Positions 1 to 63,355 of a stretch of 64,000 nucleotides of DNA are shown in pieces (position 1 is the first letter of the stretch; each line of letters begins with the position of its first letter). The translations under genes were made by a program, and so were the position numbers. The DNA is from an uncultured Bacteroidota bacterium (GTDB taxonomy: Bacteria > Bacteroidota > Bacteroidia > Flavobacteriales > Flavobacteriaceae), in contig CAIWKX010000121.1 in the NCBI GenBank assembly GCA_903913315.1, positions 11,001 to 75,000 of the forward strand. Reading direction: 5' to 3'. The notes beneath the pieces were generated by a model that saw only the letters and a program-made list of their open reading frames with translations, was not told where the DNA came from and searched no databases.

Positions 1-1092
1 CGCCGGACTATATGTAGTTGTCGATTCAGTAATAGATGTAACTTTTACAGCATTTTTAACTCCATAAAAAGTAGGACCAACTACATACGGATAAACCGAA
101 TTATAATTAGCATCTACAGTACAAAAATAGGCATACGTTCCTGATGGATATTCTGGAGTGACACAAAAGCGTCCGTTATGAATATCCAAATACGTAGAAT
201 CACCTGTATGATCTATAAACTCATAATCTTCTTTAAAATAGCCCAAAGGATAAGTAGTACTAACAGCGGGACCAGCTGTTACCGTTGCCCCAGTATACAA
301 TGTTGTTCTAGTAGTAATAGATCGCAATTGAAAACTAGATTTCATTCGAACAACCCCACCTGTTCCATCTACATTAGCATAACCAAAAGCGCCATAAATA
401 GGATATCCGTCATAAGCAAATCCGATTAAGGGAGAATGTTGACTTGGATTAATAGTATATAATCCGTCGGAAGGATACAAGGAACAAATAGTAGAAAGCA
501 CATTCAAATCGGTATTAAAAGCGCTTGGATTTTGATGATGATGGTAATTTCCCATGGCTGGATGTGCTTTGGAACAATCAAATCCAACACGTTCCGCAAG
601 AACAGCATCCCTATTCCATACACCGTCTCCTGTACAAGGAGGATTAATAGGGCCACCACATAACGAACTTGTTGAATTTTTCCAAGAAACACCATCACGG
701 TAATCAAACAAAGCAACTCCATTAATAAAATTTCCAATATCTCCCCCTGTGGTCGCCGTTAATGTACCTGAATTCGCAGTAGGTGTCAATGGAAATTTAA
801 AAATAGCTCCCGCTTGAGAAGTAGCCAACGATGGATTTCCGTCTAAAAAAGGCCCCGTAATATAGGCCGGAATCCCATTAGTAGTAACATAAACCCAATT
901 AGTGGAATATTGCACAGTTTGCACATTGGCCAATGGTGTATCCACAATTGGAGTCGAATTTCCAGAGACAAAATGTCTTCCAGTGATACCTGTCGTATTT
1001 CTCAACCAACCAGTAATAGCTGGATTAGTTTGAGAAATCAGTAACATACAACTTGACATTGTAAAAAATAAGGTTAAAATGGACTTTTTCAT
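1..1092 (-). CDS. YHYH-domain secreted protein; C-terminus cut by window edge (N-terminal 364 codons visible)
   Basis: Absent from the ORF track because it runs off the edge. My translation from ATG 1092..1090 gives MKKSILTLFFTMSSCMLLISQTNPAITGW... and stays open to base 1. It contains GNYHHHQNP and FAYDGYPIYG, resembling the YHYH protein at 45217..46824. It starts 11 bp after the peroxidase gene. Confidence 0.7.
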   Translation of the reverse strand, partial: MKKSILTLFFTMSSCMLLISQTNPAITGWLRNTTGITGRHFVSGNSTPIVDTPLANVQTVQYSTNWVYVTTNGIPAYITGPFLDGNPSLATSQAGAIFKFPLTPTANSGTLTATTGGDIGNFINGVALFDYRDGVSWKNSTSSLCGGPINPPCTGDGVWNRDAVLAERVGFDCSKAHPAMGNYHHHQNPSAFNTDLNVLSTICSLYPSDGLYTINPSQHSPLIGFAYDGYPIYGAFGYANVDGTGGVVRMKSSFQLRSITTRTTLYTGATVTAGPAVSTTYPLGYFKEDYEFIDHTGDSTYLDIHNGRFCVTPEYPSGTYAYFCTVDANYNSVYPYVVGPTFYGVKNAVKVTSITESTTTYSPA

Positions 1093-1103
1093 AAATGTAT
1101 TGG

Positions 1104-2153
1104 TTAGTGATTTATATTCGATTTTGGATAACTATACTTCGGATTAAATAAAAACTCTTTATCAGTCAATGTAAAAAGAAAGGCTATCAAATCTTTCTTT
1201 TCATTTTCATTTAAGCGAATTGGTTTTTGTAACTCTTTGGCCAAGGTTTTCCTCTTTACTGTTCCATCGGTGTAAAAATTGATGACTTCACGTAATTTCT
1301 TAAATCTCCCATCATGCATGTAAGGATACGTAAACTCAATATTCCTTAAGGTAGGTACTCTAAAATTAAAACTGTCTTTTGGATTTTGAGTAATTGTAAC
1401 CCTTCCATAATCTTTATAATCAGCATCTAATGGTAATCCATTATCAGCAAAGCTATCATTAGTAAATAAAGGATCTCTATGACAACTAATACAGTTTTTT
1501 CGAAATAACTCATATCCGTTTTCTTCTTGTTCAGTATAGAAAATGTCTTTTTCATGACGCATTACTTTATCAAATTTAGAATTATATGTTTCTAATGACA
1601 CTGTGTATTGCGCAATTGATTTTAGTAAAGATTTAGTAGTTATAACACTATCGTTAAAAGCATTGTAAAATAATTCTTTGTATTTTTTAGAGTGATTTAA
1701 TTTATCTAAAACGTTAACTAAAGAATTATCCATCTCTAAGGGATTCGTAATTGGATTGATAGGTTGAACTTCTAAATTTATTACACCTCCATCCCAATGA
1801 AACAATTTAGTCCAAGCTAAATTCATAATTGGCATAGCGTTTCGTGTTCCAATTCGTCCCTCTATTCCATGACTTAAGGCATGATCTGTATGAGCAAAAC
1901 CAGTATATTGCAAATGACAACTTGCACAAGAAATCGTACTATCTCTTGAAATAATGGGGTCGTAAAATAATGTTCTGCCCAATTCAAATCCCTTCTCCGT
2001 TAATTCATTCTTTTTGAAATCGTAAACGGGTTTAGGCCATCCTTTAGGAACAAAAAAGGCTCCATAATAAATGCGACGGTCAGCTTTTGTCAATGAAAAC
2101 AACAAAAAGCTTACTAGCAATAAAGTCAATATAGTGAGTGCTCTTTTTTTCAA
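1104..2153 (-). CDS. Di-haem cytochrome c peroxidase, MauG/MbnH-like
   Basis: Signal peptide. Two CxxCH haem motifs (CASCH, CISCH). Length and spacing are typical of the CCP/MauG family. Same operon as an MbnP-like gene. Confidence 0.85.
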   Translation of the reverse strand: MKKRALTILTLLLVSFLLFSLTKADRRIYYGAFFVPKGWPKPVYDFKKNELTEKGFELGRTLFYDPIISRDSTISCASCHLQYTGFAHTDHALSHGIEGRIGTRNAMPIMNLAWTKLFHWDGGVINLEVQPINPITNPLEMDNSLVNVLDKLNHSKKYKELFYNAFNDSVITTKSLLKSIAQYTVSLETYNSKFDKVMRHEKDIFYTEQEENGYELFRKNCISCHRDPLFTNDSFADNGLPLDADYKDYGRVTITQNPKDSFNFRVPTLRNIEFTYPYMHDGRFKKLREVINFYTDGTVKRKTLAKELQKPIRLNENEKKDLIAFLFTLTDKEFLFNPKYSYPKSNINH

Positions 2154-2167
2154 ATTACTATTTACTT

Positions 2168-2782
2168 TTAATCCATGATTTGAAGTTGTCCTCTAAAAAA
2201 TATTCTACAACCAAATGATTCTGATTTAGGTGTTGAAACTTCTTTATTTTGCAACAACTCATCTACTGCATCTGTCAAAAAATGATGTTTTGCTTTTTCG
2301 GGCTCACCTGCATTATCATCAATGGCTCCTTGATATTTTATAACAAACTTTCCCGATTTATTTTTCCAAATAACAAAGGCTTGTGGGGTATGAGTAGCTT
2401 TAAATTCTTTAGCAATATTTTGCTTCTTGTCTTGCAAATAAGGGAAAGTCAATTGTTCTTTTTTTACTTTCTTCTGCATTAGTTTGAACGATTCTTCTGC
2501 GTAAGCTAAAGTATCCATTGAATTCACTGCTAATAGCCGTACTCCCATTTTTTTATACTTGGCATCCATATGATTCAATCTTTGAGAATAAAACTTTGCC
2601 ATCGGACATTTGTTACAAGTGAAAACCACAATAAATCCTTTCGCTTCTTTATAATCTGAAAGCGAAACCCATTGATTAGTAGTAGCACTTTTTAATTTAA
2701 AATTGAAAACTATAGTACTTCTATCAATAAAAGTAGAACTGCATAGAATCAAAGCAAATATAACAAGCAGTAGCTTTTTCAT
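2168..2782 (-). CDS. Thioredoxin-fold (TlpA/redoxin-like) periplasmic protein
   Basis: Signal peptide. CNKCP (CxxC) motif after a beta-strand (FIVVFTCNKCP). About 200 aa. Confidence 0.7.
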   Translation of the reverse strand: MKKLLLVIFALILCSSTFIDRSTIVFNFKLKSATTNQWVSLSDYKEAKGFIVVFTCNKCPMAKFYSQRLNHMDAKYKKMGVRLLAVNSMDTLAYAEESFKLMQKKVKKEQLTFPYLQDKKQNIAKEFKATHTPQAFVIWKNKSGKFVIKYQGAIDDNAGEPEKAKHHFLTDAVDELLQNKEVSTPKSESFGCRIFFRGQLQIMD

Positions 2783-2785
2783 AGT

Positions 2786-4510
2786 TTATTTTTTTATAAA
2801 CTTTTTGGTGGTCACACTTTTAGTTTGCTTATCCATCATTTGAAAGGTATAAACACCTGTTTCTAAAGAAGAAATATCTATTCCATTTTTCCATTCAGGT
2901 TGCGGCAGCATAATAACAACCCTACCTTCTATCGTTGAAATTGTAACATAATATATCTCTACTGAAGTATCTTTTAAAGTAACAAACAATGTATTATTTG
3001 CTGGATTTGGATACAAACTAAATGCAGTATTTGGTGCATTTTCGTTAATTGACAAAGGAGCAGAAACAATAAATTGTCCCATCATGCCGCCATCTTCATG
3101 ACCTCCAAAATGACAATGGTACATATAGGGATGGTTAACATCCGAATCTGCAAAGTCATCAAATTTTGCAACAAAAGTCACTGATTCATTTATAGGTAAA
3201 TAAAAAGTATCCTTCCAGCCTGACTCATAACTTCCTACATTAGCTGCGGAGCCATTTCTTGCTACAATTTTAAACTCTATATCATGAATGTGAAAGGAAT
3301 GCCCGAAAACATTGCTATTAGTTACAGTCCATTTTTCTATGTCATTAAGATTAACCGTTTTATTAATCGTTAACAAATCAAAGGAAGTGTTATCAAAATT
3401 AAATGGAACACTTGAAGGACCTGGATTCCCATTAGTGACCGCTACTGATCGAGTTACAGTAGCATCCGAAGCTGCCCAGTAGGTATTACTAGCTAATGTT
3501 GACGGTACTGCTGTAATTGGAGTAGTTGAAGTAGTCGTGGCAGCCACATTAATATGTAATACTGAAAAGTCTACATTATTTAACAAACTACCAAAATTTC
3601 CAGAACTATTAGGCTCACCTCCAGGAAATCCGAAAGCCTGGCCCGAGTTATAAGCTTTCAAGTCAATGCTTGAACCAACAGTATCACTTCCTAAATCCAC
3701 CATAATTTCGACACGTTCTCCTACAAGCAATTTAACTCTTGTTACTGCAACAGGAGCATTTAATAGCCCTCCATCATTCCCTATTATGTAAAAGGTTCTG
3801 TTATCACTAAAACCTAAATTATACCCTCTTTCAATCTCTGCATTTAAAATTCGCATTCTAACAAATTGTTTGGGCAAACTATATTGGGCACTTGGAGTTC
3901 CATTTGTCAGCATATAATCTCCATAAACACGAGTGGATGTTGGTGGTGTAACAAAGGTATTAGTAGTCGCATTATAACTTCTACTGGTCAAGGCTAAAAC
4001 AATATCATCAACTCCATAGGTTCTTGGTAAAGCTAAAGCCGATTCTTGCGGATCTTTTACAATGATAAAGCCGCCAACTCCTTTAGTCATTTGCTCTTGT
4101 GTAGATTGATGCAAATGCGGATGATACCATAACGTAGTAGCTTGATTCATCACGGTCCAGTAGGGTTGCCAAAGTGTTCCTGAAGGAATGACTTGGTGTG
4201 GGCCTCCATCCATTACAGCAGGTAAATGCATACCATGCCAATGCAATGTAGTGGATTCATTCAAATTATTAGTCACATTAACATGTATTAAATCACCTTT
4301 ATTGACAAATAGCGTTGGCCCCCAAAAAGTTTCATTATTAATTGATCCTGTGACCGTTTGATTTCCTGAAACTAATTGTTTAGTACTTTCGTGAATATTC
4401 AAATCAAAAGTGGTCCCATAAAGAGCTTCGGGCATTGACATATTGTTGTACTGTGCCTTAATACAGTTGGAAAGCAGACTAATAAAAATTAAAGACAATA
4501 CTTTTTTCAT
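2786..4510 (-). CDS. Multicopper oxidase (laccase/CueO-like) with T9SS C-terminal sorting domain
   Basis: Copper-site motifs HWHGMHLP, WYHPH, HSFHIHD and HCHFGGHEDGGMMG. The C-terminal ~80 aa (FSLYPNPANNTLFV...GVYTFQM) looks like a Por secretion tail. Confidence 0.85.
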   Translation of the reverse strand: MKKVLSLIFISLLSNCIKAQYNNMSMPEALYGTTFDLNIHESTKQLVSGNQTVTGSINNETFWGPTLFVNKGDLIHVNVTNNLNESTTLHWHGMHLPAVMDGGPHQVIPSGTLWQPYWTVMNQATTLWYHPHLHQSTQEQMTKGVGGFIIVKDPQESALALPRTYGVDDIVLALTSRSYNATTNTFVTPPTSTRVYGDYMLTNGTPSAQYSLPKQFVRMRILNAEIERGYNLGFSDNRTFYIIGNDGGLLNAPVAVTRVKLLVGERVEIMVDLGSDTVGSSIDLKAYNSGQAFGFPGGEPNSSGNFGSLLNNVDFSVLHINVAATTTSTTPITAVPSTLASNTYWAASDATVTRSVAVTNGNPGPSSVPFNFDNTSFDLLTINKTVNLNDIEKWTVTNSNVFGHSFHIHDIEFKIVARNGSAANVGSYESGWKDTFYLPINESVTFVAKFDDFADSDVNHPYMYHCHFGGHEDGGMMGQFIVSAPLSINENAPNTAFSLYPNPANNTLFVTLKDTSVEIYYVTISTIEGRVVIMLPQPEWKNGIDISSLETGVYTFQMMDKQTKSVTTKKFIKK

Positions 4511-4522
4511 GTTTTTTAATGT

Positions 4523-5227
4523 TTAATTTACGGTGAACATATTTTTATACAACTGAGACATCGCAATTGCTTTAGCCCCCGGTATCATAATAGCAGTAGT
4601 TTCATGCAAAGAAACTTCATTTAACCACGTACTTAAATCCATTTTAATATGTAGTGTTGTTGACTGGTCAGGGACCATCAAACTCACTTCTTGCAACGCA
4701 CTTTGACTAGGTAAATAACCACCAATGTGAAATTGAAAGTCATTTTTTACTGTTTTACAACTCGAACTCCTGCCCTCTAATTTCATATTAATATAACCCG
4801 AATTCCAAGCCCAATACATTCCTAATGAAGGGTCTAAATCACCTGTTAAGTCACCGGAAACATTTGTCAAACTATCAATTCCTATTTGGAATCGAATTTT
4901 TTTAATCTTCAAATCGGGAGCATTCTTAATTTGAAATTGCAAGGTGTTTATTTCGTCTAAATTAATTAAGTGAACACTATTAAGCTCTTTATATTCAGTT
5001 CCATCATCATAATATAATACCACATTGGAAATATAAAACTTTAAGGTGGTGATAGAAAGTGTATCGTTTTTTGCAGTGATGTATTTTGCAGTATTCAAAA
5101 CTAAAGCTTCCTTATCAAAGCTTGGTTCAATAGAAAATAGAATGTCTTTCCTTTCTACTTTAATTTGAAAAGAAAGACAGATCAATGCAATAATCGCAGC
5201 AAAAAAAATAACTAACTTTCTATACAT
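4523..5227 (-). CDS. MbnP-family (copper-binding partner of MbnH) protein
   Basis: N-terminal signal/anchor. LKFYISNVVLYYDDGTEY, GMYWAWNSGYINMKLEG and FHIGG segments match my recollection of MbnP-family proteins. Co-operonic with a MauG/MbnH-like peroxidase. Confidence 0.6.
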   Translation of the reverse strand: MYRKLVIFFAAIIALICLSFQIKVERKDILFSIEPSFDKEALVLNTAKYITAKNDTLSITTLKFYISNVVLYYDDGTEYKELNSVHLINLDEINTLQFQIKNAPDLKIKKIRFQIGIDSLTNVSGDLTGDLDPSLGMYWAWNSGYINMKLEGRSSSCKTVKNDFQFHIGGYLPSQSALQEVSLMVPDQSTTLHIKMDLSTWLNEVSLHETTAIMIPGAKAIAMSQLYKNMFTVN

Positions 5228-5230
5228 ATA

Positions 5231-5734
5231 TTAAGGTCTTGGCGGAGGCGGAGGTCCATCGCCCCCTCCCATTCTAGATGGCGGACCTTGACCTTCTCGT
5301 TGTTTTGACCCCATCATTCTAGCGGCCTCTTTGATGATTTTATCAAATAGTTGCTTTTGTTTTTCATCACATATAGCTCTCACTTTTTTAAAATGATAAA
5401 ACATAGCGAGCTCTTCTTTCTCTTTGATTTTCAAAATTTCAGCAGCCGCATTTCTAACGGTTACTGAATCGACACTTGGGTTTTTCAATAATTCCAAGTA
5501 AGCATCGTGCTTTTCTTTATCCATTTCTTGTAAAGCTTCTTTGGCTTCATGATGCTCTCTCTTTAAAGCTTCAAATTGTTCTCTTTGTTTTGCTGTAAAC
5601 TGTAATTCTTTTGAAAAAAAATCTCCAACAGCATCTTTTTTAGGTGGTCTATGCAACCACATGAATGAAATCGTACTTAAATTGATCAGCAATAAAAGTA
5701 CAATTACAATTTTTAAAAATTTAGAATTGTTCAT
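5231..5734 (-). CDS. Membrane-anchored Spy/CpxP/CnrX-like periplasmic sensor (periplasmic heavy metal sensor family)
   Basis: One N-terminal TM segment, then a charged helical region with an LTxxQ-like FTAKQREQFEALKREHHEAK. Gly/Pro-rich tail GGGDGPPPPPRP. Sits directly after the sigma/anti-sigma pair. Confidence 0.55.
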   Translation of the reverse strand: MNNSKFLKIVIVLLLLINLSTISFMWLHRPPKKDAVGDFFSKELQFTAKQREQFEALKREHHEAKEALQEMDKEKHDAYLELLKNPSVDSVTVRNAAAEILKIKEKEELAMFYHFKKVRAICDEKQKQLFDKIIKEAARMMGSKQREGQGPPSRMGGGDGPPPPPRP

Positions 5735-5745
5735 ACTAGTTTGTT

Positions 5746-6030
5746 TTAATAATCACTTGAAAAATATTCTTTATACACTACATTCTTTTCATTGCTTACC
5801 GAACTGGTCGTTTTAGTATTCTTAGAATATTGTGTAATCGAAACCAAATTAATACCCAACAAAACTAGTACACTAGCTGCAATAGTCCATTTTTGAATAG
5901 CGCTCAATCTGATTTCTTTTTGTTTTGAATAGTTCACTAAAGAAGAACTCAAAGTCAAAGGAACTTCTATCCTTTGAAGTGTATCCAAGGAGTGTAAAGT
6001 TTCTTCTATCCAATTTTCTTTTGTGTTCAT
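5746..6030 (-). CDS. Putative small single-TM anti-sigma factor
   Basis: 94 aa with a single hydrophobic segment (WTIAASVLVLLGINLVSI). Starts 36 bp after the ECF sigma gene. Called from position and architecture only. Confidence 0.4.
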   Translation of the reverse strand: MNTKENWIEETLHSLDTLQRIEVPLTLSSSLVNYSKQKEIRLSAIQKWTIAASVLVLLGINLVSITQYSKNTKTTSSVSNEKNVVYKEYFSSDY

Positions 6031-6066
6031 AATACTATAGATGTTATTTGTTTAAAAAACTTGTGG

Positions 6067-6654
6067 TTACTTTTCATTTTCTTCATAATAAATGGACAAA
6101 TGCTTCTTCAAATTCTGTTTCCCTCTGAAAAGCAACGACTCTACTGCCGATAAAGATAATTGCATAATGTCCGCTATTTCATTATAACTAACTTGCTCCA
6201 TCTTATGCAGAATATAAGCAGTCCGCTGCTGTTCTGGCAGTAAATCAATTGCCTTAAATAATATTTTGGCACGCTCCTGATTTTCTAATTGAATTCCAGG
6301 ATGAATAAAATCGGAATGGTTTTCGATAGCTCGTTCTCCATCAGAAGAGAAAATTGATTTAAAAATTCCAAAACGTTTCTTCCTGCTTTTCTTTCTTATA
6401 AACTCCAAACATTTATTAACTGTTATTCGGTAAATCCAAGTGGAAAGAGAAGATTCTTCTTTGAATTCTTTACTATTTAAATGAATGGCTATAAAGATAT
6501 CTTGCGTCACATCTTCAGCATCTTCTCTATTCTGAAGCATTCCAATACAGGTATTGTACACCTTTTTGGAAAACAAATCCACAAGTAATTGAAACGCCTT
6601 TTCGTCGTTCTTCTTCAGTAGTAGGATGAGTTCTTTTTCTTCCAAAGAGTTCAA
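6067..6654 (-). CDS. ECF-type RNA polymerase sigma-70 factor
   Basis: Region 2 (EDAEDVTQDIFIAI...LSTWIYRITVNKCLEFIRK) and region 4 (LPEQQRTAYILHKMEQVSYNEIADIM) are recognisable. The only available start is TTG at 6654, with an in-frame TAA 8 codons upstream and no ATG between. Confidence 0.85.
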   Translation of the reverse strand: MNSLEEKELILLLKKNDEKAFQLLVDLFSKKVYNTCIGMLQNREDAEDVTQDIFIAIHLNSKEFKEESSLSTWIYRITVNKCLEFIRKKSRKKRFGIFKSIFSSDGERAIENHSDFIHPGIQLENQERAKILFKAIDLLPEQQRTAYILHKMEQVSYNEIADIMQLSLSAVESLLFRGKQNLKKHLSIYYEENEK

Positions 6655-6840
6655 TTTAAATTTTAGATGCTCCTTTTAATAAAAACTTGTGTTGCTTTTT
6701 GAACCATTAATAAATTAAGCCGCATTAAAAACAAATCCTTAATTTTCTTACTGGTTTATACTTATTACCAAATGTAGAATAAAATAATCACTAATCAAAT
6801 TTGTGAATTGTTCAATACTAATTGTCATTCGAGAAATGAT

Positions 6841-11909: not shown

Positions 11910-11939
11910 AAATTATTAACTAATTAAAAAAATCAAATT

Positions 11940-12209
11940 ATGAAAAAAAAAATTGCAACAATGTCTTTAATGGCATTCCTTTTAGCCGGTACTGTAAATG
12001 CTCAAGAACAAAGACCTCAAGAAAAAGATAAAAAAGAGCACCACGACCACGATAAGGATAAAAAAGAAGGACGAGAAAAAGAGCATCATAAAAAAGGAGA
12101 ACACGAAGGTGATTACAAAAGAGATCACAAAGTAGAGCATAAGGGTGATCATAAAGGAGAATACAAAGATGACCACAAAAAAGAAGGAAACGAAAATGAA
12201 AAAAGATAA
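11940..12209 (+). CDS. Secreted histidine-rich, highly charged mini-protein
   Basis: Signal peptide MKKKIATMSLMAFLLAGTVNA. The mature ~67 aa are almost entirely K/E/D/H/G, with 10 His and xDHK/xEHK quasi-repeats. It has its own promoter box and terminator. Confidence 0.6.
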   Translation: MKKKIATMSLMAFLLAGTVNAQEQRPQEKDKKEHHDHDKDKKEGREKEHHKKGEHEGDYKRDHKVEHKGDHKGEYKDDHKKEGNENEKR

Positions 12210-12240
12210 GTTGTCTTTTTAAAATAGCATACAAAAGAAA

Positions 12241-12268
12241 GTGCTTGAAAATTTCAAGCACTTTTTTT
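12241..12268. terminator. Bidirectional terminator hairpin between the His-rich gene and acr3
   Basis: GTGCTTGAAA / TTTCAAGCAC arms with TTTTTTT downstream and an A-rich stretch upstream. Confidence 0.7.
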
Positions 12269-12301
12269 ATTGTACAAAAGTAATTGCTATCTGATAATTT
12301 C

Positions 12302-13333
12302 TTATTTGTAATATTTTTTGCGTAACCAAAAAGCGACATTGACTAAGATAATTAAAGCAGGAACTTCTACCAACGGACCAATAACACCAGCAAAAGCTTG
12401 ACCACTATTAATACCAAAAACACCAATAGAAACGGCTATCGCCAATTCAAAATTATTGCCAGAAGCGGTAAAGGAAATAGCGGCATTGTCACGATAATCG
12501 GCACCCACTTTTTTACCTACAAAAAACATGAGTAAAAACATAATGGCAAAGAAAATCATCAAAGGAATAGCTATTCTTATAACATCAAAAGGCAATTGCA
12601 CAATCATCTGCCCTTTTAAACTGAACATCACTACAATAGTAAAAAGCAAAGCAATCAATGTAATGGGAGAAACAAACGGAAGAAACTTTTGGTTAAACCA
12701 TACATCTCCAGAAAATTTCTTTATCAAAAATCGACTGGTTACCGCTAAAGTAAATGGTATTCCGAGGTAAATCCCAACCGTTGAAGCGATTTGTGAAATG
12801 GTAATATTCAATGCTAATCCTTTAATCCCAAATAAGGGCAACATAATTTCCAAATAAAAATAAGCATACAAACTAAAAAACAAAACTTGCAATAAACTAT
12901 TAATCCCAACTAAACCTGCCGTTAATTCACGATTACCTTCCGCTAATTCGTTCCATACAATAACCATAGCAATACAGGGAGCAAGTCCAATAATAATTAA
13001 TCCCGTCATGTATTCTGGATAGTCTTTAAGGAAGAAAATAGACAGCAAGAACATCAAAAAAGGACCAACAATCCACGTGATTATGAAGGACGCCAGTACT
13101 ATTTTGGGTTTCTTAAACATCAGGGGGATCTTGCTAAAATCCACTTTAGTTAATGGCGGATACATCATTAATATCAAGCCAATTGCCAAAGGAACATTAG
13201 TTGTTCCAGAAGAAAATGAATTGATAAAATTAGCCGAATTTGGAATAAAATATCCTATACCAACCCCCATAAGCATGGCCAAAAAGATCCAAAGCGTTAA
13301 AAATCGATCTAAAAAATTAAGCCTTTTTTTCAT
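12302..13333 (-). CDS. acr3: ACR3-family arsenite efflux transporter
   Basis: Polytopic membrane protein of 343 aa with the conserved GLAPCIAMV segment. It is the last gene of an ars operon. Confidence 0.9.
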   Translation of the reverse strand: MKKRLNFLDRFLTLWIFLAMLMGVGIGYFIPNSANFINSFSSGTTNVPLAIGLILMMYPPLTKVDFSKIPLMFKKPKIVLASFIITWIVGPFLMFLLSIFFLKDYPEYMTGLIIIGLAPCIAMVIVWNELAEGNRELTAGLVGINSLLQVLFFSLYAYFYLEIMLPLFGIKGLALNITISQIASTVGIYLGIPFTLAVTSRFLIKKFSGDVWFNQKFLPFVSPITLIALLFTIVVMFSLKGQMIVQLPFDVIRIAIPLMIFFAIMFLLMFFVGKKVGADYRDNAAISFTASGNNFELAIAVSIGVFGINSGQAFAGVIGPLVEVPALIILVNVAFWLRKKYYK

Positions 13334-13342
13334 TTCTTTTAT

Positions 13343-13945
13343 TTAGTTTATTTGAGAAAATACAAAATACATTTCTGCAGCTATTTCCCTACTGCGTTCA
13401 GCATATTTTTCGTCCATTACATCAGTTCCATCATATATTTTGGGGTCATCGTATCGTATAGGTAAGCGTTGTTCTGCTCCTGCAATAAAAGGACAACCCT
13501 CATCGGCAGACGAACAGGTCATAATAGCTGCAAATTGAGAATCGGGATTAAAAGCATCATCAAAGGTTTTTGAAAAACAAATGACAGGATGTTCATTTAA
13601 AGCATATTTAATGGCATAAACAGGATTGGCAGTAGCACTTAATTGCTGAACGTCAAATCCTTGTTTTTGCAAAGTCTCTCCTACTTTGGGAAACATTGCC
13701 GTAGCCTCAGTTCCTCCCGAATAGCAAACTACATTTTTAATTCCAAAATGAAAAGCCATAGTTTGTGCCCATAGTTGCGACAAATGACTTCTGCGAGAAT
13801 TGTGCGTGCAAATAAAATTCAAACGAATATCTTGATGGTCTGCTACTTTCATTTGAATATAATCAATCAAAGGTTGTAACACTTCCTTTCGTTCGTTTGA
13901 AATTGTAATTTTAGCAATGGAGGCAATTGTTTCAGATAGATTCAT
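13343..13945 (-). CDS. arsC: Arsenate reductase of the low-molecular-weight phosphotyrosine phosphatase type
   Basis: CX5R P-loop CTHNSRRS plus downstream Cys residues (VVCYSGG, MTCSSADEGCP). Lies in an ars operon. Confidence 0.75.
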   Translation of the reverse strand: MNLSETIASIAKITISNERKEVLQPLIDYIQMKVADHQDIRLNFICTHNSRRSHLSQLWAQTMAFHFGIKNVVCYSGGTEATAMFPKVGETLQKQGFDVQQLSATANPVYAIKYALNEHPVICFSKTFDDAFNPDSQFAAIMTCSSADEGCPFIAGAEQRLPIRYDDPKIYDGTDVMDEKYAERSREIAAEMYFVFSQIN

Positions 13946-13987
13946 GGATGATTTTTGAATTAGGATACTTTTTAATTAGAATAGCAA

Positions 13988-14464
13988 TTAACAACAACCT
14001 GAATTTGGGGTGCAACATGAAGTTTCTTTTTGCTTCCACTCGCCTATTTTAACCTTCATTTTCTCTGGCGGAATTCCACAATGGTCTTTTGCCAAACAAT
14101 CGGTGATTTTTGATTGCAGTCGAAAGTTAGTGCCATCAAAATCAAGACTGAATTTACCAATAGTATCTTTCATTTGATATTCCACTTCAATCTCTAAATC
14201 TGGAATTTGCAAGGTAGCTTCCGACAATTCAATAATATGAAGTAATTTTTCAGGATGCAATCGATGATCATAATCATTTGCTTCCCAAAGTTGAAAATTA
14301 ACTACTTCTTCAGTTCGCACAACACCACCGCAATCAATAAAATGTTTGGTTATTTTGCCAATTTCAGTCACGTGAAAATGATTGGGAACTAGGTCACCAT
14401 TCGGCAATTGAAACGCAATGGTAGTAAGCTTTTGCAATTCGTTCTTAATTTCTGATAATTTCAT
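13988..14464 (-). CDS. DUF6428-like ars-operon protein with Cys-rich C-terminal tail
   Basis: FQLPNGDLVPNHFHVTEIGKITKHFIDCGG...LEIEVEYQ matches my memory of DUF6428. The tail is ETSCCTPNSGCC. Confidence 0.65.
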   Translation of the reverse strand: MKLSEIKNELQKLTTIAFQLPNGDLVPNHFHVTEIGKITKHFIDCGGVVRTEEVVNFQLWEANDYDHRLHPEKLLHIIELSEATLQIPDLEIEVEYQMKDTIGKFSLDFDGTNFRLQSKITDCLAKDHCGIPPEKMKVKIGEWKQKETSCCTPNSGCC

Positions 14465-41980: not shown

Positions 41981-43345
41981 ATGTCTGTTTCATTAATTCA
42001 AAAATATAATGTTCCTGGTCCTAGATATACCAGCTACCCTACAGTTCCTTATTGGGAAGAAGATTTGTTTTCAGTTGAAAAATGGAAACAGACTTTCCTG
42101 AAATCATTTGAAGAAAGCAATTTCACGGAAGGAATTAGCTTATACATTCACTTGCCTTTTTGCGAAAGCATGTGTACTTTTTGTGGTTGTAACAAAAGAA
42201 TTACTAAAAATCATGAGGTGGAACACCCTTACATCGCAGCTGTTTTAAAAGAATGGAATATGTATTGCGATTTGTTTCCAAACAAACCTATCATCAAAGA
42301 AATTCATTTAGGTGGAGGAACACCTACCTTTTTCTCTCCCACAAATTTAGAAACGCTTATTAATGGACTATTAGAACGAGCAGTAAAAGCCAAAGAATAT
42401 GAATTTAGTTTTGAAGGACATCCAAACAATACCACTAGAGCGCATTTACAAAAATTGTATGATATAGGGTTCAGACGCGTCAGCTTTGGAGTGCAAGACT
42501 ATTCTGAAAAAGTACAAACAGCCATTCATAGAATCCAACCTTTCCATAATGTCGCCAAAGTGACCTTCTGGGCCAAAGAAATTGGATATACTTCGATCGG
42601 GCACGACTTAATATTCGGATTGCCATTCCAAAGCTTAGACGATGTAATTGACACTATCGACAAAACAAAATCACTACTTCCTGATCGCTTAGCTTTTTAT
42701 AGCTACGCACACGTGCCTTGGATAAAAGGTAACGGACAACGCGGATTTAAAGGAGAAGACGTACCAAAAGATGATGCCAAAAGAAAACTATACGAAGAAG
42801 GTAAAAAACGATTAGCCGCCAACAATTACCACGAAATCGGAATGGACCATTTTGCACTTGAAACCGATTCCATGTTTGAATCATTCCAAGAAGGAAAATT
42901 ACACCGTAACTTTATGGGTTACACCTCTTCTAAAACACAATTGATGATTGGCTTAGGCGTTTCCTCCATAAGCGATAGCTGGTATAGTTTTGCACAAAAT
43001 GAAAAAACAATAGAAGACTATTATAAAAAATTAGAGCAAAACGAATTGCCAGTCTTTAGAGGACATATTTTAACAGAAGAAGATTTAATCATCCGCAAAC
43101 ACATTCTAAATTTAATGTGCCAATTTGAAACCTCATGGGGCGAGGATAATCAATTCTTTACAGAATTACCCGATATTATCCACCAATTACACGAAATGGA
43201 AGTGGATGGTCTGATCACAATAACAGATAAATCCATAAAAGTGACTGAAAAAGGAAAACCTTTCGTAAGAAACCTATGCATGGCTTTCGACCTGCGTTTA
43301 AAACGAAATGCACCACAAACAGAACTGTTTTCAATGACAGTATAA
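41981..43345 (+). CDS. hemN: Oxygen-independent coproporphyrinogen III oxidase (radical SAM)
   Basis: CESMCTFCGC radical-SAM cluster motif. 454 aa with HemN-type N- and C-terminal regions. Confidence 0.9.
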   Translation: MSVSLIQKYNVPGPRYTSYPTVPYWEEDLFSVEKWKQTFLKSFEESNFTEGISLYIHLPFCESMCTFCGCNKRITKNHEVEHPYIAAVLKEWNMYCDLFPNKPIIKEIHLGGGTPTFFSPTNLETLINGLLERAVKAKEYEFSFEGHPNNTTRAHLQKLYDIGFRRVSFGVQDYSEKVQTAIHRIQPFHNVAKVTFWAKEIGYTSIGHDLIFGLPFQSLDDVIDTIDKTKSLLPDRLAFYSYAHVPWIKGNGQRGFKGEDVPKDDAKRKLYEEGKKRLAANNYHEIGMDHFALETDSMFESFQEGKLHRNFMGYTSSKTQLMIGLGVSSISDSWYSFAQNEKTIEDYYKKLEQNELPVFRGHILTEEDLIIRKHILNLMCQFETSWGEDNQFFTELPDIIHQLHEMEVDGLITITDKSIKVTEKGKPFVRNLCMAFDLRLKRNAPQTELFSMTV

Positions 43346-43456: not shown

Positions 43457-44026
43457 TTACAACAAAATTCTTTCTATTAGCCAATACAAAGCGACACATC
43501 CGATAAGGGAGGATATTGGATAAACAACACGCTCTTTGTACCAGCTTTTAGCTGCAAACCATTTGCTTACTAAATAGTAGGCAAAAAAAACAACCATGAT
43601 CTGCCCTAGTTCGACGCCAATATTAAAAGAAAACAAACAGCTAAAGAATAGTTTTTTAGGAATTCCTATTTCTTGTAAAGCTGAGGCGAAACCCATCCCA
43701 TGAATCAAACCAAAGACAAAAATGATTATTAAACGAAAAGGATTAACACTATTTCGCACTATGTTTTCAATAGCAGTATAAAGGATAGAAATAGCAATTA
43801 GTGGCTCGATGTAATTAGAATTTGGCAAAATCAAGCTCGATGCAGCTAATCCTAAGGATAAACTGTGTGCTATTGTAAAAACAGAGCATTGAATAATAAC
43901 TGATTTTAGTTCTGAATTTATAAAGAATAAAGTCAATATAAACAAAATATGATCAAATCCAAGTGGAATGACATGGGTAAACCCTAATTGAATATAGTGA
44001 CCAATGTTTTCTAAATAACCCATCAA
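43457..44026 (-). CDS. HupE/UreJ-family membrane protein (putative Ni/Co permease)
   Basis: 189 aa with six hydrophobic segments and the N-terminal motif GFTHVIPLGFDHILFIL. Its ATG directly abuts the stop of the upstream gene. Confidence 0.75.
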   Translation of the reverse strand: MMGYLENIGHYIQLGFTHVIPLGFDHILFILTLFFINSELKSVIIQCSVFTIAHSLSLGLAASSLILPNSNYIEPLIAISILYTAIENIVRNSVNPFRLIIIFVFGLIHGMGFASALQEIGIPKKLFFSCLFSFNIGVELGQIMVVFFAYYLVSKWFAAKSWYKERVVYPISSLIGCVALYWLIERILL

Positions 44027-45208
44027 TTATTGTTTGACAAACTTAAAAACTGTTGATGTCCCTGAAATTTTTAAGAAATAAACTCCGTTTGGTAATGCTG
44101 AAAAATCTTGTTTATCCAAATATCTACCTATATAGATTTGTTTTCCTTCTTCATCATAAAATTCATATACTTCAGAGCCTTTTGAATTTGCAATATTTAA
44201 TTTTGATTGAAACGGATTGGGAGATACTTTTATTCTATTCGTTTCATTGACCACCTCTTGATTTGCAAGGCTATTGGGAATGCCTCGGACACAAATAACA
44301 TAGTTAGTATTCGTTTTGATGTCATAAGTTGTAATTCCAAATTGGGTATTCCAATACCAAGCACTAGTTAGATTGCTGGGATTGGGTAATAAAGTTGTAG
44401 AGGACCAATAATTTTTGACTCCAATAGCACTCAAGTATGCTGTGTTAACAGACGGATTTACAACGCTTTCATCATTTAAAGATTGTAATTCTTTAATATT
44501 AGGTAAACGCCAATCTGACACTCCTGCTAAGGTCAACCCTTCAGCATAACTAAGAGCTTGTTCCCATGTAAGCGGTGTAAGAGTGGGTACTTTTTGCCAG
44601 ACTAATTGGGTGAGATTGTCAGAAATAGTTCCATCACCATTATCGGTATAATGATTAGCTAAAATAATTGGAACATTGACATCCCTAACCGCTCTCACAT
44701 GATAACTTTTATTCCCGCCAGCACTAAGGGTTTCCGATTTTGGTTTGTTACCTATACCGCCACCTGCATTAGTGCACCATACTTTTGTATTATCATTAAC
44801 TTGAAAAGTATTCGTCCACCAATAATCCGCTCCGCTCGAAGGAAAATAAGTAGTATTCAGAGCCGGATTGTTTCGTTGTAAGTTTAAAATACTAAAAGAT
44901 TCCAATGGAGTTGGCAATCGCCAATCAGAATAACCTCCAAGCGTCAATGTACTACAATAAGTAGAAGCATTTTCAATAGTCATTTCGCCACCATCAACTT
45001 GTTGCCACATTAACCCAGTGACCATATCCGTAATGGTGCCATTTCCATTATCAGTAAAGGAGGGTATATTGATCGAATAATCATTATCTTCTCCAACAGT
45101 TGCAGTATAACTCGTCGTTTGCCCCGTATCAGGTAACAATCGGATAGATTTAGTGACACTTTGCCCAAATGCAATGGATGTAATAAATAGTAATAAAAAA
45201 TTTCTCAT
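44027..45208 (-). CDS. Secreted protein with two DUF1566 (Lcl C-terminal-like) domains and a T9SS sorting domain
   Basis: Repeated GYSDWRLPT / GVSDWRLPNIKEL signatures. C-terminal VSPNPFQSKLNI...GVYFLKI tail. Confidence 0.7.
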   Translation of the reverse strand: MRNFLLLFITSIAFGQSVTKSIRLLPDTGQTTSYTATVGEDNDYSINIPSFTDNGNGTITDMVTGLMWQQVDGGEMTIENASTYCSTLTLGGYSDWRLPTPLESFSILNLQRNNPALNTTYFPSSGADYWWTNTFQVNDNTKVWCTNAGGGIGNKPKSETLSAGGNKSYHVRAVRDVNVPIILANHYTDNGDGTISDNLTQLVWQKVPTLTPLTWEQALSYAEGLTLAGVSDWRLPNIKELQSLNDESVVNPSVNTAYLSAIGVKNYWSSTTLLPNPSNLTSAWYWNTQFGITTYDIKTNTNYVICVRGIPNSLANQEVVNETNRIKVSPNPFQSKLNIANSKGSEVYEFYDEEGKQIYIGRYLDKQDFSALPNGVYFLKISGTSTVFKFVKQ

Positions 45209-45216
45209 ACAATTAG

Positions 45217-46824
45217 TTATTCAACCATTAGTTTTTTGGTCACCTCCACGTTATTTGTAAATTGAATTTTTACAAAATAGGTCCCTGAAGCAAGATTTTT
45301 AATATCAATTGGAGATTTAAAAGATTCTGTTTTAGAAATTAAAATCCCTTTAATACTGAAGAGGCTAATATCTTGCACATCATTTTCCAATAGGTCTTTT
45401 CCTAAATGAATTTGCAACGAATCTTTTGCAGGATTTGGATAGACTTGCACCTCGGAATCCAACAAAAAAACAGCAGTAGACAAAGGCACAGTACATTGCG
45501 AAAAACCATTATAATTAGTAGTTGTTGTGCCACTTGGGGTAACATAATTGAAAGTATATGTGGTACCACTCCAACTAAAATTAGTAGCATAACCAGGGGT
45601 CCCATTTAATGAATAAGATACATTATAACCATTAGCATTGGAATTTGGCACACATGAAGTTATCAAAGCACCACTCAAAGGGGTCCAATTTTCAGTGCGT
45701 ACCGGATGGGCAGAAGCTTGAGGAATCAATTGATAAGTAGCATCTTCAGTAACTTGTCCAACAAAATTTCCAATCATATAAGGGGCGATAGCAGTACCAT
45801 GATAGTGATAAACACCATTCGTTCCATAATGACCATGATTAGCATCCAAAGCAAGCATTGGACTTCCATCAGGTTCAACACTTCCATAAACAGCATACCC
45901 ATCCAATCCAAAAGCACAAGGTAAATCGGTGGTAGTCTGACCTAAAGTATACAAATGCAGTGGAGCAATATGATAATGATAATCGTCTCCTCGTCCACAA
46001 TGACCTCCATAATTATCCAATTGCCCATCTAAATACGAGTCAACACCTGTATTCGTGTGATAATTAAAAATAGGCACTCCATTAGCAGCAATAGCGATTG
46101 CGCCACGTGTGAAGTGTACATTATCAATCACTATTGGAGTGGCTGCAACCACAGGATTCAATGGAATACTCCAATGATTTGTTCCTATATAACATTGCGG
46201 ATTTGGCACTTGTTGCTGCCAACCATGATTGGAAATACCAACCATCATCGTGTGATTAGGAATTCCTTTACTTTCTACATAAAAATAAGTAGCATCCCAA
46301 GAGGTATGTACATTAGGTACAAATGGAGTGAAAGCCGAATTAACAAAAGTAGGATCGGTTATTGTCACTATTTTTTTTCCAAAACTAAAAAGCGTTACCG
46401 AAAGACCTACAATTACAATTGGAATAACATATTTTCTTTTTCTTTTATCTGTTGCTTTGAATAAAAAATAAGCAAAACCAATTAGAAATAGTACAATCAT
46501 TATGATTTTCCCATAAAATTTATTTGGAATTTCATTTGAAGTTTTCGCTATACTATTGGTATTAATAGCTTTAATTTTTATTTCTTTTTGTGCTACATAA
46601 TCTTGATCTGCTTTTGAAAGTGCGTCCCAAGGGTAGCTTTTCAATACATTTTGTCCATCTTCAATATATACTTTACCCTCTTTAACCATAGAGAATGAAC
46701 CATCTACAAACAGATGTTCTTTTTGAATATTCCAATGTCTTAAAACCTGATTTTGATAGTTTATAGTATGTGCTGAAGCAGCTAAACTAATCATGTAAAA
46801 AATGACTACAATTGCTTTTTTCAT
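45217..46824 (-). CDS. YHYH-domain protein with N-terminal SHD1-like module, two internal hydrophobic helices and a T9SS sorting domain
   Basis: GGHCGRGDDYHYHIAP, GLDGYAVYG and GVYHYHG motifs. C-terminal VYPNPAKDSLQI...GTYFVKI tail. Confidence 0.7.
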   Translation of the reverse strand: MKKAIVVIFYMISLAASAHTINYQNQVLRHWNIQKEHLFVDGSFSMVKEGKVYIEDGQNVLKSYPWDALSKADQDYVAQKEIKIKAINTNSIAKTSNEIPNKFYGKIIMIVLFLIGFAYFLFKATDKRKRKYVIPIVIVGLSVTLFSFGKKIVTITDPTFVNSAFTPFVPNVHTSWDATYFYVESKGIPNHTMMVGISNHGWQQQVPNPQCYIGTNHWSIPLNPVVAATPIVIDNVHFTRGAIAIAANGVPIFNYHTNTGVDSYLDGQLDNYGGHCGRGDDYHYHIAPLHLYTLGQTTTDLPCAFGLDGYAVYGSVEPDGSPMLALDANHGHYGTNGVYHYHGTAIAPYMIGNFVGQVTEDATYQLIPQASAHPVRTENWTPLSGALITSCVPNSNANGYNVSYSLNGTPGYATNFSWSGTTYTFNYVTPSGTTTTNYNGFSQCTVPLSTAVFLLDSEVQVYPNPAKDSLQIHLGKDLLENDVQDISLFSIKGILISKTESFKSPIDIKNLASGTYFVKIQFTNNVEVTKKLMVE

Positions 46825-46842
46825 GATTTTTAATGTATTAAG

Positions 46843-48579: not shown

Positions 48580-48585
48580 TTTCTA

Positions 48586-50283: not shown

Positions 50284-50299
50284 AGTTATTTAGAGTTGG

Positions 50300-50797
50300 T
50301 TATCTTCTGGTGGGCTGATTGTCGGGTCTAAAATAATCCCTAATCTCTTTGACCAAAACTTCAAATTTTTCCTGTTGTTCTGGGGTACAAACCAATTTCA
50401 ATTCTTTGGCTTGACGATAACGAAGCAGTTCCATTTCATATTCAAAATTGGCAGTTTGTCTTGCAAGACCGATTATTTTATGTTCATCAGTGTCTTTATT
50501 AAACATGGCCGCATTCATCGCATCTTTATTATCCTTAATCTTTTGTTTCAGTACAATTTCTTTACGGTAATAATCTTCTCTGATAGTACTGAATTGTTGT
50601 GCTTGCTTTTCATCCAATTGCAATTCGCGCTTTAAAATACCCGATAGATCTTTATAGGCTTCATTTTTTGGAAATAATAACGGTTTATGATGAGGTCTTA
50701 ATTCTTTCCAAACAAAAAAACTAATCAATCCTATATTGAGAAGAACTAAAACAATAACGGCACGTGCTAAATATTTTTGCTGTCTGAAAATATCCAT
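50300..50797 (-). CDS. Membrane-anchored Spy/CpxP/CnrX-like periplasmic sensor
   Basis: One N-terminal TM segment (AVIVLVLLNIGLISFFVW) followed by a charged helical region with an LxxxQ motif (LQLDEKQAQQF). Same position as the 5231..5734 protein. Confidence 0.5.
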   Translation of the reverse strand: MDIFRQQKYLARAVIVLVLLNIGLISFFVWKELRPHHKPLLFPKNEAYKDLSGILKRELQLDEKQAQQFSTIREDYYRKEIVLKQKIKDNKDAMNAAMFNKDTDEHKIIGLARQTANFEYEMELLRYRQAKELKLVCTPEQQEKFEVLVKEIRDYFRPDNQPTRR

Positions 50798-50804
50798 TGG
50801 TACA

Positions 50805-51095
50805 TTAGATTGAAGAAATTAATAATTCATTAGAAATAACTTCTAAATTAGTGGTTCTAGTGGTCGTTGGTTTTGACTCATTCAATAATGAAAAAACTAT
50901 CAATCCGCAATTTATCAACACAATACAAACTAAAATAAAATTGTATTTACTAATAAAAGTAGTCTTTATTGAGGCATGCATTTGCAATTTCATTTGCAAC
51001 TCATAATCCCAATCCGAAGAGGGATAAATGTTTTCTAATGACTCAAATTCTTGAAGCTTTTCTATAACTTTTTCGTTTAGTGTATTTGGTTTCAT
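50805..51095 (-). CDS. Putative small single-TM anti-sigma factor
   Basis: 96 aa with one hydrophobic segment (FILVCIVLINCGLIVFSLL). Starts 49 bp after the ECF sigma gene. Confidence 0.4.
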   Translation of the reverse strand: MKPNTLNEKVIEKLQEFESLENIYPSSDWDYELQMKLQMHASIKTTFISKYNFILVCIVLINCGLIVFSLLNESKPTTTRTTNLEVISNELLISSI

Positions 51096-51144
51096 AAACG
51101 TGATTTTTCTATTAGACGATAATAATGTTGTGGTCTGGCACTAT

Positions 51145-51714: not shown

Positions 51715-51792
51715 ATTTCAAACACTACATTACAGAATTAAACATTTACCTTTATACCTTAGACGACTTTTACTTTTGTTTCTGGCGAAGCA

Positions 51793-57520: not shown

Positions 57521-57592
57521 AATTTTTTGTTTAAAGTTTGAGGTTTAAAAGTTTAAAGTTGTTTTACAACCTAGCCTGAAATCTGCGCCTAT

Positions 57593-58678: not shown

Positions 58679-58694
58679 GATTTATTTATTTTTT

Positions 58695-58759
58695 GGAACA
58701 CAGATGAAAGAAATTATAATAATTTTAAAAATCTCTCTTATTTCTTAAGTCTGTGTTCC
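58695..58759 (-). other. 10-bp perfect inverted repeat GGAACACAGA / TCTGTGTTCC between tolC and the adaptor gene
   Basis: Arms at 58695..58704 and 58750..58759 with a 45-nt AT-rich spacer. The element ends 16 nt upstream of the adaptor ATG. Confidence 0.6.
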
Positions 58760-58792
58760 CTTTTTGATGTTTTAATATGTATTGTTAAATGA

Positions 58793-63290: not shown

Positions 63291-63355
63291 GATTTAGTTG
63301 CTATTTAGGAAAGCTATTCTAATATTTTAACTTCAATTAAAAAGTGCTATCAAAA

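Follow-up and report, generated by a model that had tools for sequence, protein, structure and literature searches.

A divergent MbnP-MbnH pair of Bacteroidota in an operon with a YHYH protein and a candidate metal-responsive ECF cassette

The first 6,654 positions of the stretch analysed here (64,000 nt of contig CAIWKX010000121.1 from an uncultured member of the Flavobacteriaceae, hereafter the window) carry eight open reading frames (ORFs), all on the minus strand, which are built around relatives of MbnP and MbnH, a protein pair that handles copper. In the order of transcription, these encode an extracytoplasmic function (ECF) sigma factor with Sigma70_r2 and Sigma70_r4_2 domains (6067-6654), a 94-aa single-pass membrane protein that is a candidate anti-sigma factor by its hydrophobic segment and its slot directly after the ECF gene (+1; 5746-6030), an N-terminally anchored periplasmic sensor of 167 aa that belongs to the Spy/CnrX/NccX superfamily (5231-5734; PF13801 and PF07813), and an MbnP-family protein of 234 aa, predicted to be a kynurenine-dependent Cu(I) binder (4523-5227; PF20243). 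They are followed by a three-domain multicopper oxidase (MCO) of the CueO clade, 574 aa long and equipped with a type-A sorting domain for the T9SS (type IX secretion system) (2786-4510; Cu-oxidase_3, Cu-oxidase_2 and Por_Secre_tail), an exported redoxin/peroxiredoxin-like protein of 204 aa with a CxxC motif, CNKCP (2168-2782; AhpC-TSA, Redoxin and Thioredoxin_8), a di-haem enzyme of the MauG/MbnH type (349 aa, 1104-2153; CCP_MauG), and a YHYH-family protein (<1-1092; PF14240), of whose 451 codons the first 364 lie in the window. A candidate ECF-type promoter of the form CAAGTT-N16-TCTAA precedes the first gene on the same strand (6663-6689), and its position is conserved in close loci. The locus is an undescribed yet widespread Bacteroidota version of a known copper-handling pair, and not a new kind of system.

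The eight genes are indeed as tightly packed as an earlier note on this DNA had described, with gaps, computed from the coordinates, of 36, 11, 3, 12, 3, 14 and 11 bp. The same note had the operon running past the window edge. Contigs that encode an identical MbnP protein show what lies beyond base 1: just the final 87 codons of the YHYH gene, which specify its T9SS tail, and then a convergent gene for an accessory protein of an ATP-binding cassette transporter. The operon thus stops at YHYH. Within it, the counts of internal sigma-70 promoters and terminators were not above those in shuffled sequence. As far as can be judged from the sequence, the arrangement is best explained by transcription as a single unit from an autoregulated ECF promoter.

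The MbnP-family protein matches the Pfam profile PF20243 over positions 4-188 of 189 with 167.6 bits (cut-off 27), but reaches only 39.5 bits (E 3.9e-10) in a partial match of residues 51-178 to the curated equivalog TIGR04052 (MbnP_like_WxW), below the cut-off of 140. It contains a Met-Tyr-Trp-Ala-Trp motif formed by Met137, Trp139 and Trp141 with their intervening residues. Among 140 representatives of the subfamily (29-55% identity), the side chains that are invariant beyond Gly, Asp and Leu are Met137, Trp139, Trp141 and His167, and Met137 and His167 are the sole invariant Met and His. The published MbnP copper site consists of a His, a Met, a solvent (water) ligand and a kynurenine that derives from the first Trp of the WxW motif (PMC11951088). 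The invariants of the window subfamily suggestively match this site in composition, and both the formation of kynurenine and the binding of Cu(I) are predicted for it. An N-terminal Cys that could have marked the protein as a lipoprotein is not conserved among its homologues, and this possibility was set aside.

The solved MbnP structure, 7L6G, was not matched in sequence searches with the single protein, with a 28-sequence profile or with a 141-sequence profile. An AlphaFold2 (AF2) model of the window protein has a mean predicted local distance difference test (pLDDT) score of 78 and a predicted template modelling (pTM) score of 0.75, with a poorly defined WxW loop (pLDDT < 50). When this model was compared with the PDB using Foldseek, the six chains of 7L6G were the only matches at E <= 0.001, the best having an E-value of 5e-7, a probability of 1.0, a TM-score of 0.55 and 12% identity; the next hit had an E-value of 0.03. 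As no sequence match to 7L6G was obtained, the link to it rests on Pfam, the sub-threshold NCBIfam hit and Foldseek. The subfamily itself is very large, as a profile search retrieved 4,100 clusters at 50% identity (E <= 0.001). A search with representatives provided no bridge to proteobacterial MbnPs, the best 150 hits all belonging to the same Bacteroidota subfamily. In the window, the MbnP gene and that of its MauG-type partner are part of the same operon but 2.3 kb apart owing to an insertion.

This partner, the di-haem enzyme, scores 168.7 bits for CCP_MauG. Its best NCBIfam model is that of MbnH (TIGR04039; 211.6 bits, under the cut-off of 362.85), with the MauG model at 179.3 bits. It aligns end to end with the MbnH structure 6E1C, including the C-terminal extension (130 bits), whereas canonical peroxidases score slightly higher in a phmmer search (139 bits). 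The haem-binding motifs CASCH (residue 76) and CISCH (residue 221) are found in every sequence that covers them, and a Trp between the haems, Trp120, in 73 of 76. The ligand of the electron-transfer haem is a Met in canonical peroxidases and a Tyr (His-Tyr ligation) in MauG-type enzymes (PMC11892367). Tyr294 is present in 70 of 70 sequences and aligns with the Tyr of 6E1C (IDIYSEGG), from which we infer His-Tyr haem ligation. This Tyr, at the position of the MbnH Tyr, is the deciding feature for regarding the enzyme as MauG-type and most like MbnH. The earlier assignments of an MbnP and an MbnH thus stand with respect to Pfam and do not reach the NCBIfam equivalog level. Scores under these cut-offs indicate that the two proteins represent a divergent Bacteroidota subfamily and are not orthologues of the methanotroph proteins.

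The YHYH-family protein scores 185.9 bits for PF14240. On the contigs with the identical MbnP, its complete form of 451 aa ends in a T9SS sorting domain of about 87 residues (PF18962, Por_Secre_tail), an architecture that is also found in a relative and in essentially all of the top 120 homologues. Based on their sorting domains, both the YHYH protein and the MCO are predicted to be exported as type-A T9SS cargo. Several further His, Cys and Trp residues are invariant in the clade linked to MbnP-MbnH. The motifs from which the family takes its name are degenerate in this clade, as the first has become an invariant NYHHHQNP and the second a Y-x-Y-F without His. A profile search of the PDB with the YHYH protein matched the T9SS tail alone, and a literature search on YHYH function found nothing.

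The regulatory end of the operon begins with the promoter candidate. CAAGTT-N16-TCTAA occurs in a single copy in the window, a count that does not exceed chance expectation. A looser form, AAGTT-N16-TC[T/C]AA, is found 34-44 nt upstream of the ECF match at 14 of 15 close Flavobacterium loci, in intergenic DNA that is otherwise divergent. A motif that keeps its position amid differing intergenic DNA is what an autoregulated ECF promoter would be expected to show, making the motif at 6663-6689 a candidate for one. The ECF ORF opens with two in-frame TTG codons and relatives conserve TTGGAAGAAAAAGAA, so that the second TTG (6645, 192 aa) is a likelier start than the first (195 aa). The -10 element of the motif ends about 17 nt upstream of this conserved start, and with a start at 6645 the leader that follows the candidate promoter is very short. 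At three loci of Flavobacterium relatives (L013, L018 and L019), MbnP, MbnH and YHYH occur together without an adjacent ECF cassette and without a copy of the promoter motif, and the trio must thus be regulated differently there.

The sigma factor itself scores 98 bits for TIGR02937 (cut-off 42.9). Among solved structures it comes closest to SigW, RpoE and AlgU-type sigma factors, and its PDB matches at E <= 1e-5 include no CnrH structure, so it appears to be a generic RpoE/SigW-like ECF. In the next slot, the 94-aa protein has, by reading of the sequence, a hydrophobic segment at about residues 48-65 and no cysteine. It matched nothing in Pfam and NCBIfam and has no similarity to the 96-aa protein of a paralogous cassette elsewhere in the window. 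Its C-terminal VYKEYF tail is kept in 16 close loci, and more distant loci have small unannotated ORFs in its place.

The sensor scores just above the Pfam cut-offs for PF13801, Metal_resist (31.1 bits against 29.2), and PF07813, LTXXQ (28.2 against 24.3). A search of the PDB with the single sequence returned coiled-coil noise only, and a family profile was required. The profile of 46 MbnP-linked sensors matches Spy (E 6.7e-5) and also CnrX and NccX, with the alignment to NccX (E 4e-3) spanning the whole protein and taking in its N-terminal anchor. The cassette of an ECF sigma factor, a small transmembrane protein and a Spy/CnrX-like protein that the earlier note had recognised is therefore present. 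His114 of the sensor is invariant and aligns exactly with His119 of NccX and CnrX, while 39 of 48 sequences share His61 and 45 share Cys122. The metal ligands of CnrX, which are His42, His46, Glu63, His119 and Met123, are otherwise not found: read from the alignment, the equivalents of the remaining four are non-conserved Lys, Ile, Lys and Val. We infer that the His/His/Cys set of the sensor would suit Cu(I), making it a candidate copper-sensing variant of CnrX. The layout of the cassette has a precedent in the ECF groups ECF281 and ECF290, which have an anti-sigma gene at +1 of the sigma factor and one for a PF13801 protein at +2, and which are probably related to heavy-metal stress (PMC7826278).

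Conservation was assessed by scanning one genome per species with MbnP-derived patterns, which yielded 409 relatives, and by comparing the best 80 of these 409 loci after mapping the window proteins and clustering all neighbouring ORFs. The resulting counts are lower bounds, as many loci lie on incomplete contigs. All 80 loci are from Bacteroidota, with families including Flavobacteriaceae, Crocinitomicaceae, Sphingobacteriaceae, Chitinophagaceae, Saprospiraceae and Lewinellaceae. MbnH is present, and adjacent to MbnP, at 70 of the 80, the sensor and the ECF sigma factor at 54 each, YHYH at 43, and the oxidase and the redoxin at 13 each. The conserved unit is thus ECF – small transmembrane protein – sensor – MbnP – MbnH – YHYH, with MbnP abutting MbnH, and the recurrence of this gene order across several Bacteroidota families indicates more than chance. 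YHYH is not a cap to the operon, as had been proposed, but a conserved third partner of MbnP and MbnH with an export tail of its own. No TonB-dependent transporter, efflux pump, CopCD or Sco recurs beside the module in the 80 loci, where the remaining neighbours that recur encode housekeeping functions or generic T9SS proteins. The architecture was not found described in the accessible literature, a search that did not extend to the neighbourhood analyses of the primary MbnP/MbnH papers. The view that the arrangement is undescribed holds to that extent, but the order of ECF, anti-sigma factor at +1 and PF13801 protein at +2 is already catalogued for other ECF groups (PMC7826278). Nothing was found in the literature on copper transcriptomics in Flavobacteria.

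The two genes that separate MbnP from MbnH in the window behave differently from this core. The MCO scores 100 bits for Cu-oxidase_3, 72.5 for Cu-oxidase_2 and 41.3 for Por_Secre_tail, and its type-A sorting domain 41.9 bits against a cut-off of 23 (TIGR04183). Its best solved structures are CueO-type (8r4h, 246 bits), and it falls under the cut-off of the CueO equivalog (315.7 bits against 525). By reading of the sequence, it has all four copper motifs, HWHG, HPH, HSFHIH and HCHFGGHEDGGMM, no Met in residues 280-350, and a Sec-type signal peptide without twin arginine. The redoxin (AhpC-TSA, 60.9 bits) has as its nearest solved relatives the uncharacterised peroxiredoxin-like proteins 3u5r, 2ywi and 2cvb, and its CNKCP motif is invariant. 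As with MbnP, a lipoprotein assignment was discarded on the grounds that the N-terminal Cys is not conserved among homologues. An AhpC_TSA gene beside MbnPH-like genes has a precedent in proteobacterial copper-acquisition operons (PMC9426467).

In a scan of metagenomes with the redoxin, nearly all of the closest relatives (45-53% identity) were located directly behind a T9SS-tailed MCO, at loci with no MbnP, MbnH or ECF gene nearby, and in three of these the pair is bounded by opposite-strand genes. Conversely, where relatives have no oxidase gene, the ORFs of MbnP and MbnH directly adjoin or overlap. Flavobacterium aciduliphilum DSM 25663 is a cultured carrier of this core type that has no oxidase. 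The MCO-redoxin pair is found between MbnP and MbnH in one Flavobacterium lineage only, and some close relatives lack it; it lies behind MbnH at a Sphingobacteriaceae locus and ahead of YHYH-MbnP at another locus. The earlier note was thus right that both genes are present and that they split the pair, but the split is a lineage-specific insertion and no built-in trait of the operon, as close relatives have MbnP abutting MbnH. In a neighbour-joining tree of MbnP and MbnH, oxidase-bearing and oxidase-free loci are interleaved within the Flavobacterium clade that shares a uvrA neighbour, which indicates either a single gain followed by three or more losses, or several gains. Together these patterns show that MCO-redoxin is an autonomous accessory module that entered MbnPH operons on more than one occasion, and its repeated joining argues for a functional affinity. 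At one further locus (L093, 7694-11955), the genes behind a stand-alone T9SS MCO-redoxin pair encode an arylsulfotransferase-like T9SS protein and a YHYH protein of 704 aa, a second and independent association of YHYH with the oxidase module.

A paralogous cassette at 50300-51714 (minus strand) consists of a second ECF sigma factor (38% identical), a 96-aa transmembrane protein and a PF13801 sensor (26% identical) that has a Gln at the His114 position and keeps the Cys. It heads an operon (43457-51714, minus strand) that encodes two metallophosphoesterases of the T9SS-exported kind, a T9SS-tailed YHYH protein with canonical YHYH motifs, an Lcl_C protein with a T9SS tail, and a HupE/UreJ_2 permease. 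As this copy precedes phosphatase genes and has a Gln in place of His114, the cassette appears to be a reusable switch, and the metal-ligand His to be specific to the MbnP-linked version. The best hint so far that this family may handle metal outside the cell is the recurrence of YHYH next to metalloenzymes that are secreted and to a metal permease. Upstream of the paralogous ECF gene, a GAAAC-N14-CGTCTAA motif was noticed by eye at about 51745-51775 (minus strand). It has a -10-like TCTAA in common with the motif at 6663-6689 and differs in its -35, which would fit separate regulons.

Compared with the MbnP-MbnH pair of Methylosinus trichosporium OB3b (7L6G, 6E1C) and with MbnPH-like pairs of proteobacterial copper operons, the window locus has in common a partner protein and a MauG-type di-haem enzyme, the WxW motif accompanied by a single invariant His and a single invariant Met, the MbnP fold, the position of the haem Tyr and, in most relatives, gene adjacency. 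It differs in its low identity to 7L6G (about 12%), in the scores of both proteins, which lie under the NCBIfam cut-offs, and in its lack of methanobactin genes, of the MbnT transporter and of the MbnI/R regulators. Instead, it has control by ECF, anti-sigma factor and PF13801 protein, a T9SS-exported YHYH protein as third partner, and two genes inserted in the pair. To our knowledge, MbnP-MbnH is the only system with an enzyme known to build a kynurenine copper site. MopE and CorA (Methylococcus, Methylomicrobium) resemble the window locus in that the gene of a MauG-like peroxidase lies beside that of a copper protein with a Trp-derived kynurenine, and in that one component is on the surface or secreted. 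The copper protein of the window has a different fold, however, and its MbnP lacks an export tail, leaving YHYH or the oxidase as the surface part. With CueO, the periplasmic cuprous oxidase of E. coli and the closest solved family, the window MCO shares three domains and four copper motifs, and it departs from CueO in its Sec-type signal without twin arginine, its T9SS tail, the absence of a Met-rich insert, its obligate CxxC redoxin neighbour and its sub-cut-off score.

On the regulatory side, the closest comparison is with CnrYXH and NccYXH of Cupriavidus metallidurans, which respond to nickel and cobalt. They share with the window an ECF sigma factor, a single-pass protein of about 95 aa, in the window a candidate anti-sigma factor, and an N-anchored periplasmic sensor, and the window sensor aligns end to end with NccX and retains the His119 ligand. 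In contrast to the Y-X-H order of CnrYXH, the genes are arranged as sigma factor, candidate anti-sigma factor and sensor. The sensor lacks His42, His46, Glu63 and Met123 of CnrX and has conserved His61 and Cys122 instead; the sigma factor resembles SigW and RpoE; and the 94-aa protein matches no known family among the Pfam and NCBIfam models. The output differs too, as CnrYXH controls a resistance-nodulation-division (RND) efflux pump whereas the window cassette precedes binding and oxidising proteins. By analogy, the system would work like the CnrYXH switch but is probably not a member of that family. ECF281 and ECF290 share the anti-sigma factor at +1 and the PF13801 protein at +2 (Casas-Pastor et al., PMC7826278), but they use zinc-finger or RskA-like anti-sigma factors whereas the 94-aa protein has no cysteine and no Pfam hit.

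That the operon is an envelope copper-handling module, as the earlier note had suggested, is a reasonable reading, and it is most likely responsive to copper. Its most plausible form, which we hold with a little less than even confidence, is a protective module of a Bacteroidota-specific type that is induced by copper excess, the direction of induction being the weakest step. The sensor would bind a periplasmic metal, most likely copper, through His114, His61 and Cys122, and the metal-bound form would relieve the 94-aa anti-sigma factor and free the ECF sigma factor. This would then drive its own promoter, CAAGTT-N16-TCTAA, and with it the seven downstream genes. The di-haem enzyme, brought to its bis-Fe(IV) state by peroxide, would oxidise Trp139 of MbnP to kynurenine, and the resulting Cu(I) site of Met137, His167 and kynurenine would allow MbnP to sequester periplasmic Cu(I). 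The T9SS would export YHYH and, in the window lineage, the oxidase to the cell surface, where the oxidase may convert Cu(I) to the less permeant Cu(II), and the redoxin may aid its maturation or redox upkeep in the periplasm ahead of export. Three things favour excess and protection: the family to which the sensor belongs, the likeness of the oxidase to CueO, and the absence of an importer. Since none recurs beside the module, sequestration and oxidation fit better than uptake.

Several points weigh against this explanation. Every experimentally studied context of MbnPH, MopE and CorA is one of copper acquisition and is copper-repressed (PMC3621798, PMC9426467). MbnP and MbnH both fall under the curated NCBIfam equivalog cut-offs, and Met137 and His167 are not placeable on the ligands of 7L6G, as a sequence alignment to that structure was unobtainable and the WxW loop is poorly modelled. 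No similarity of the 94-aa protein to an anti-sigma factor was detected with the Pfam and NCBIfam models, and the paralogous cassette controls phosphatases, so that this type of cassette is not tied to copper. YHYH is an uncharacterised family whose AF2 model failed (pLDDT 42), and the MCO, which by reading of its sequence lacks the Met-rich insert of CueO, could be a laccase.

The copper-repressed precedents are at the core of a rival explanation, in which the operon would be switched on by copper scarcity and serve acquisition and delivery, with YHYH capturing copper outside the cell, as MopE and CorA do, and MbnP acting as a periplasmic Cu(I) chaperone to cuproenzymes, including the oxidase, which would have to receive its metal ahead of T9SS export or in the course of it. 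The redoxin could then reduce Cu(II) or, like TlpA and Sco at CuA centres, hold ligand cysteines in the reduced state. Proteobacterial MbnPH-like genes are found in copper-repressed operons with TonB-dependent transporters and often AhpC_TSA genes (PMC9426467, PMC3621798), and MopE and CorA are surface-bound or secreted kynurenine-copper proteins with a di-haem partner, likewise copper-repressed (PMC3621798). YHYH with its predicted export and many invariant His residues, the pairing of YHYH with a HupE/UreJ metal permease and secreted metalloenzymes in the paralogous operon, and the oxidase-redoxin pair as a fixed unit would all suit such a role. Yet no transporter recurs beside the module in the 80 loci, the core operon mostly lacks an obvious client cuproenzyme, and the sensor superfamily as well as the catalogued ECF/PF13801 groups point to metal excess or stress (PMC7826278); we regard acquisition as a serious though less probable rival. 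A related and bolder idea, which we regard as unlikely, is that the core is a Bacteroidota-specific, protein-based system for copper capture and delivery, in which the His-rich YHYH would be an extracellular copper-binding or copper-dependent partner, perhaps even a second substrate of the MauG-type enzyme, and MbnP, as a periplasmic carrier of Cu(I), would metallate T9SS cargo, for instance the oxidase of the operon, before its export.

Copper need not be involved if the MauG-type enzyme installs a Trp-derived catalytic cofactor in MbnP or in YHYH, the oxidase works at the surface as a laccase on phenolics, Mn(II) or Fe(II), and the ECF cassette senses general envelope or oxidative stress. 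MauG-type enzymes do make varied protein-derived cofactors (PMC11951088), and YHYH has invariant Trp, His and Cys residues; in addition, the oxidase is under the CueO cut-off and without the Met-rich cuprous-oxidase insert, the redoxin is peroxiredoxin-like, and the same type of cassette regulates non-copper genes in the window. This explanation appears quite improbable: the MbnP invariants fit the composition of a copper site and do not point to a catalytic pocket, a metal-ligand His absent from the paralogous sensor is retained in the MbnP-linked one, and the oxidase, being accessory, cannot define the core function. The promoter motif is not significant by itself within the window and the sensor scores barely over the Pfam thresholds, from which it could be argued that the genes are incidental neighbours without common regulation or function, and that too much has been read into the domain hits behind the MbnP and YHYH calls. 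Given the same gene order in several Bacteroidota families, short gaps or overlapping ORFs, the conserved position of the promoter motif and strong Pfam scores for MbnP, MbnH and YHYH, this seems scarcely credible.

Bacteroidota carry a very large and divergent branch of MbnP, with its own regulatory switch, an exported YHYH partner and no recurring transporter. The locus is a tractable setting for testing the role of MbnP-MbnH outside methanobactin operons, and it provides a first functional lead for the YHYH family. With the recurrent T9SS oxidase-redoxin unit comes the question by what route T9SS cargo enzymes are supplied with copper. If the capture and delivery explanation is true, it would give the YHYH family its first function and show the metal source of T9SS-secreted cuproenzymes.

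Other parts of the window, all on the minus strand unless stated otherwise, contain further gene sets. An arsenic-resistance-type cluster (11938-14464) comprises an SBF/Acr3-like permease (12302-13333), an ArsC-like LMWPc protein (13343-13945) and a DUF6428 protein (13988-14464), and on the contigs with the identical MbnP an ArsR-type helix-turn-helix gene is called beside it. An RND efflux set (54296-60106) consists of ACR_tran (54296-57520), a membrane-fusion protein of the HlyD_D23 type (57593-58678) and an outer-membrane factor of the OEP family (58793-60106). FixH and DsbD_2 proteins are of the kind found in assembly clusters of cbb3 oxidases; FixH and a DsbD_2 membrane protein are encoded at the right edge of the window (62589-63811), and an ORF on the plus strand (41981-43345) resembles HemN by reading of its sequence. 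A copper-requiring respiratory oxidase pathway may thus lie near these genes.

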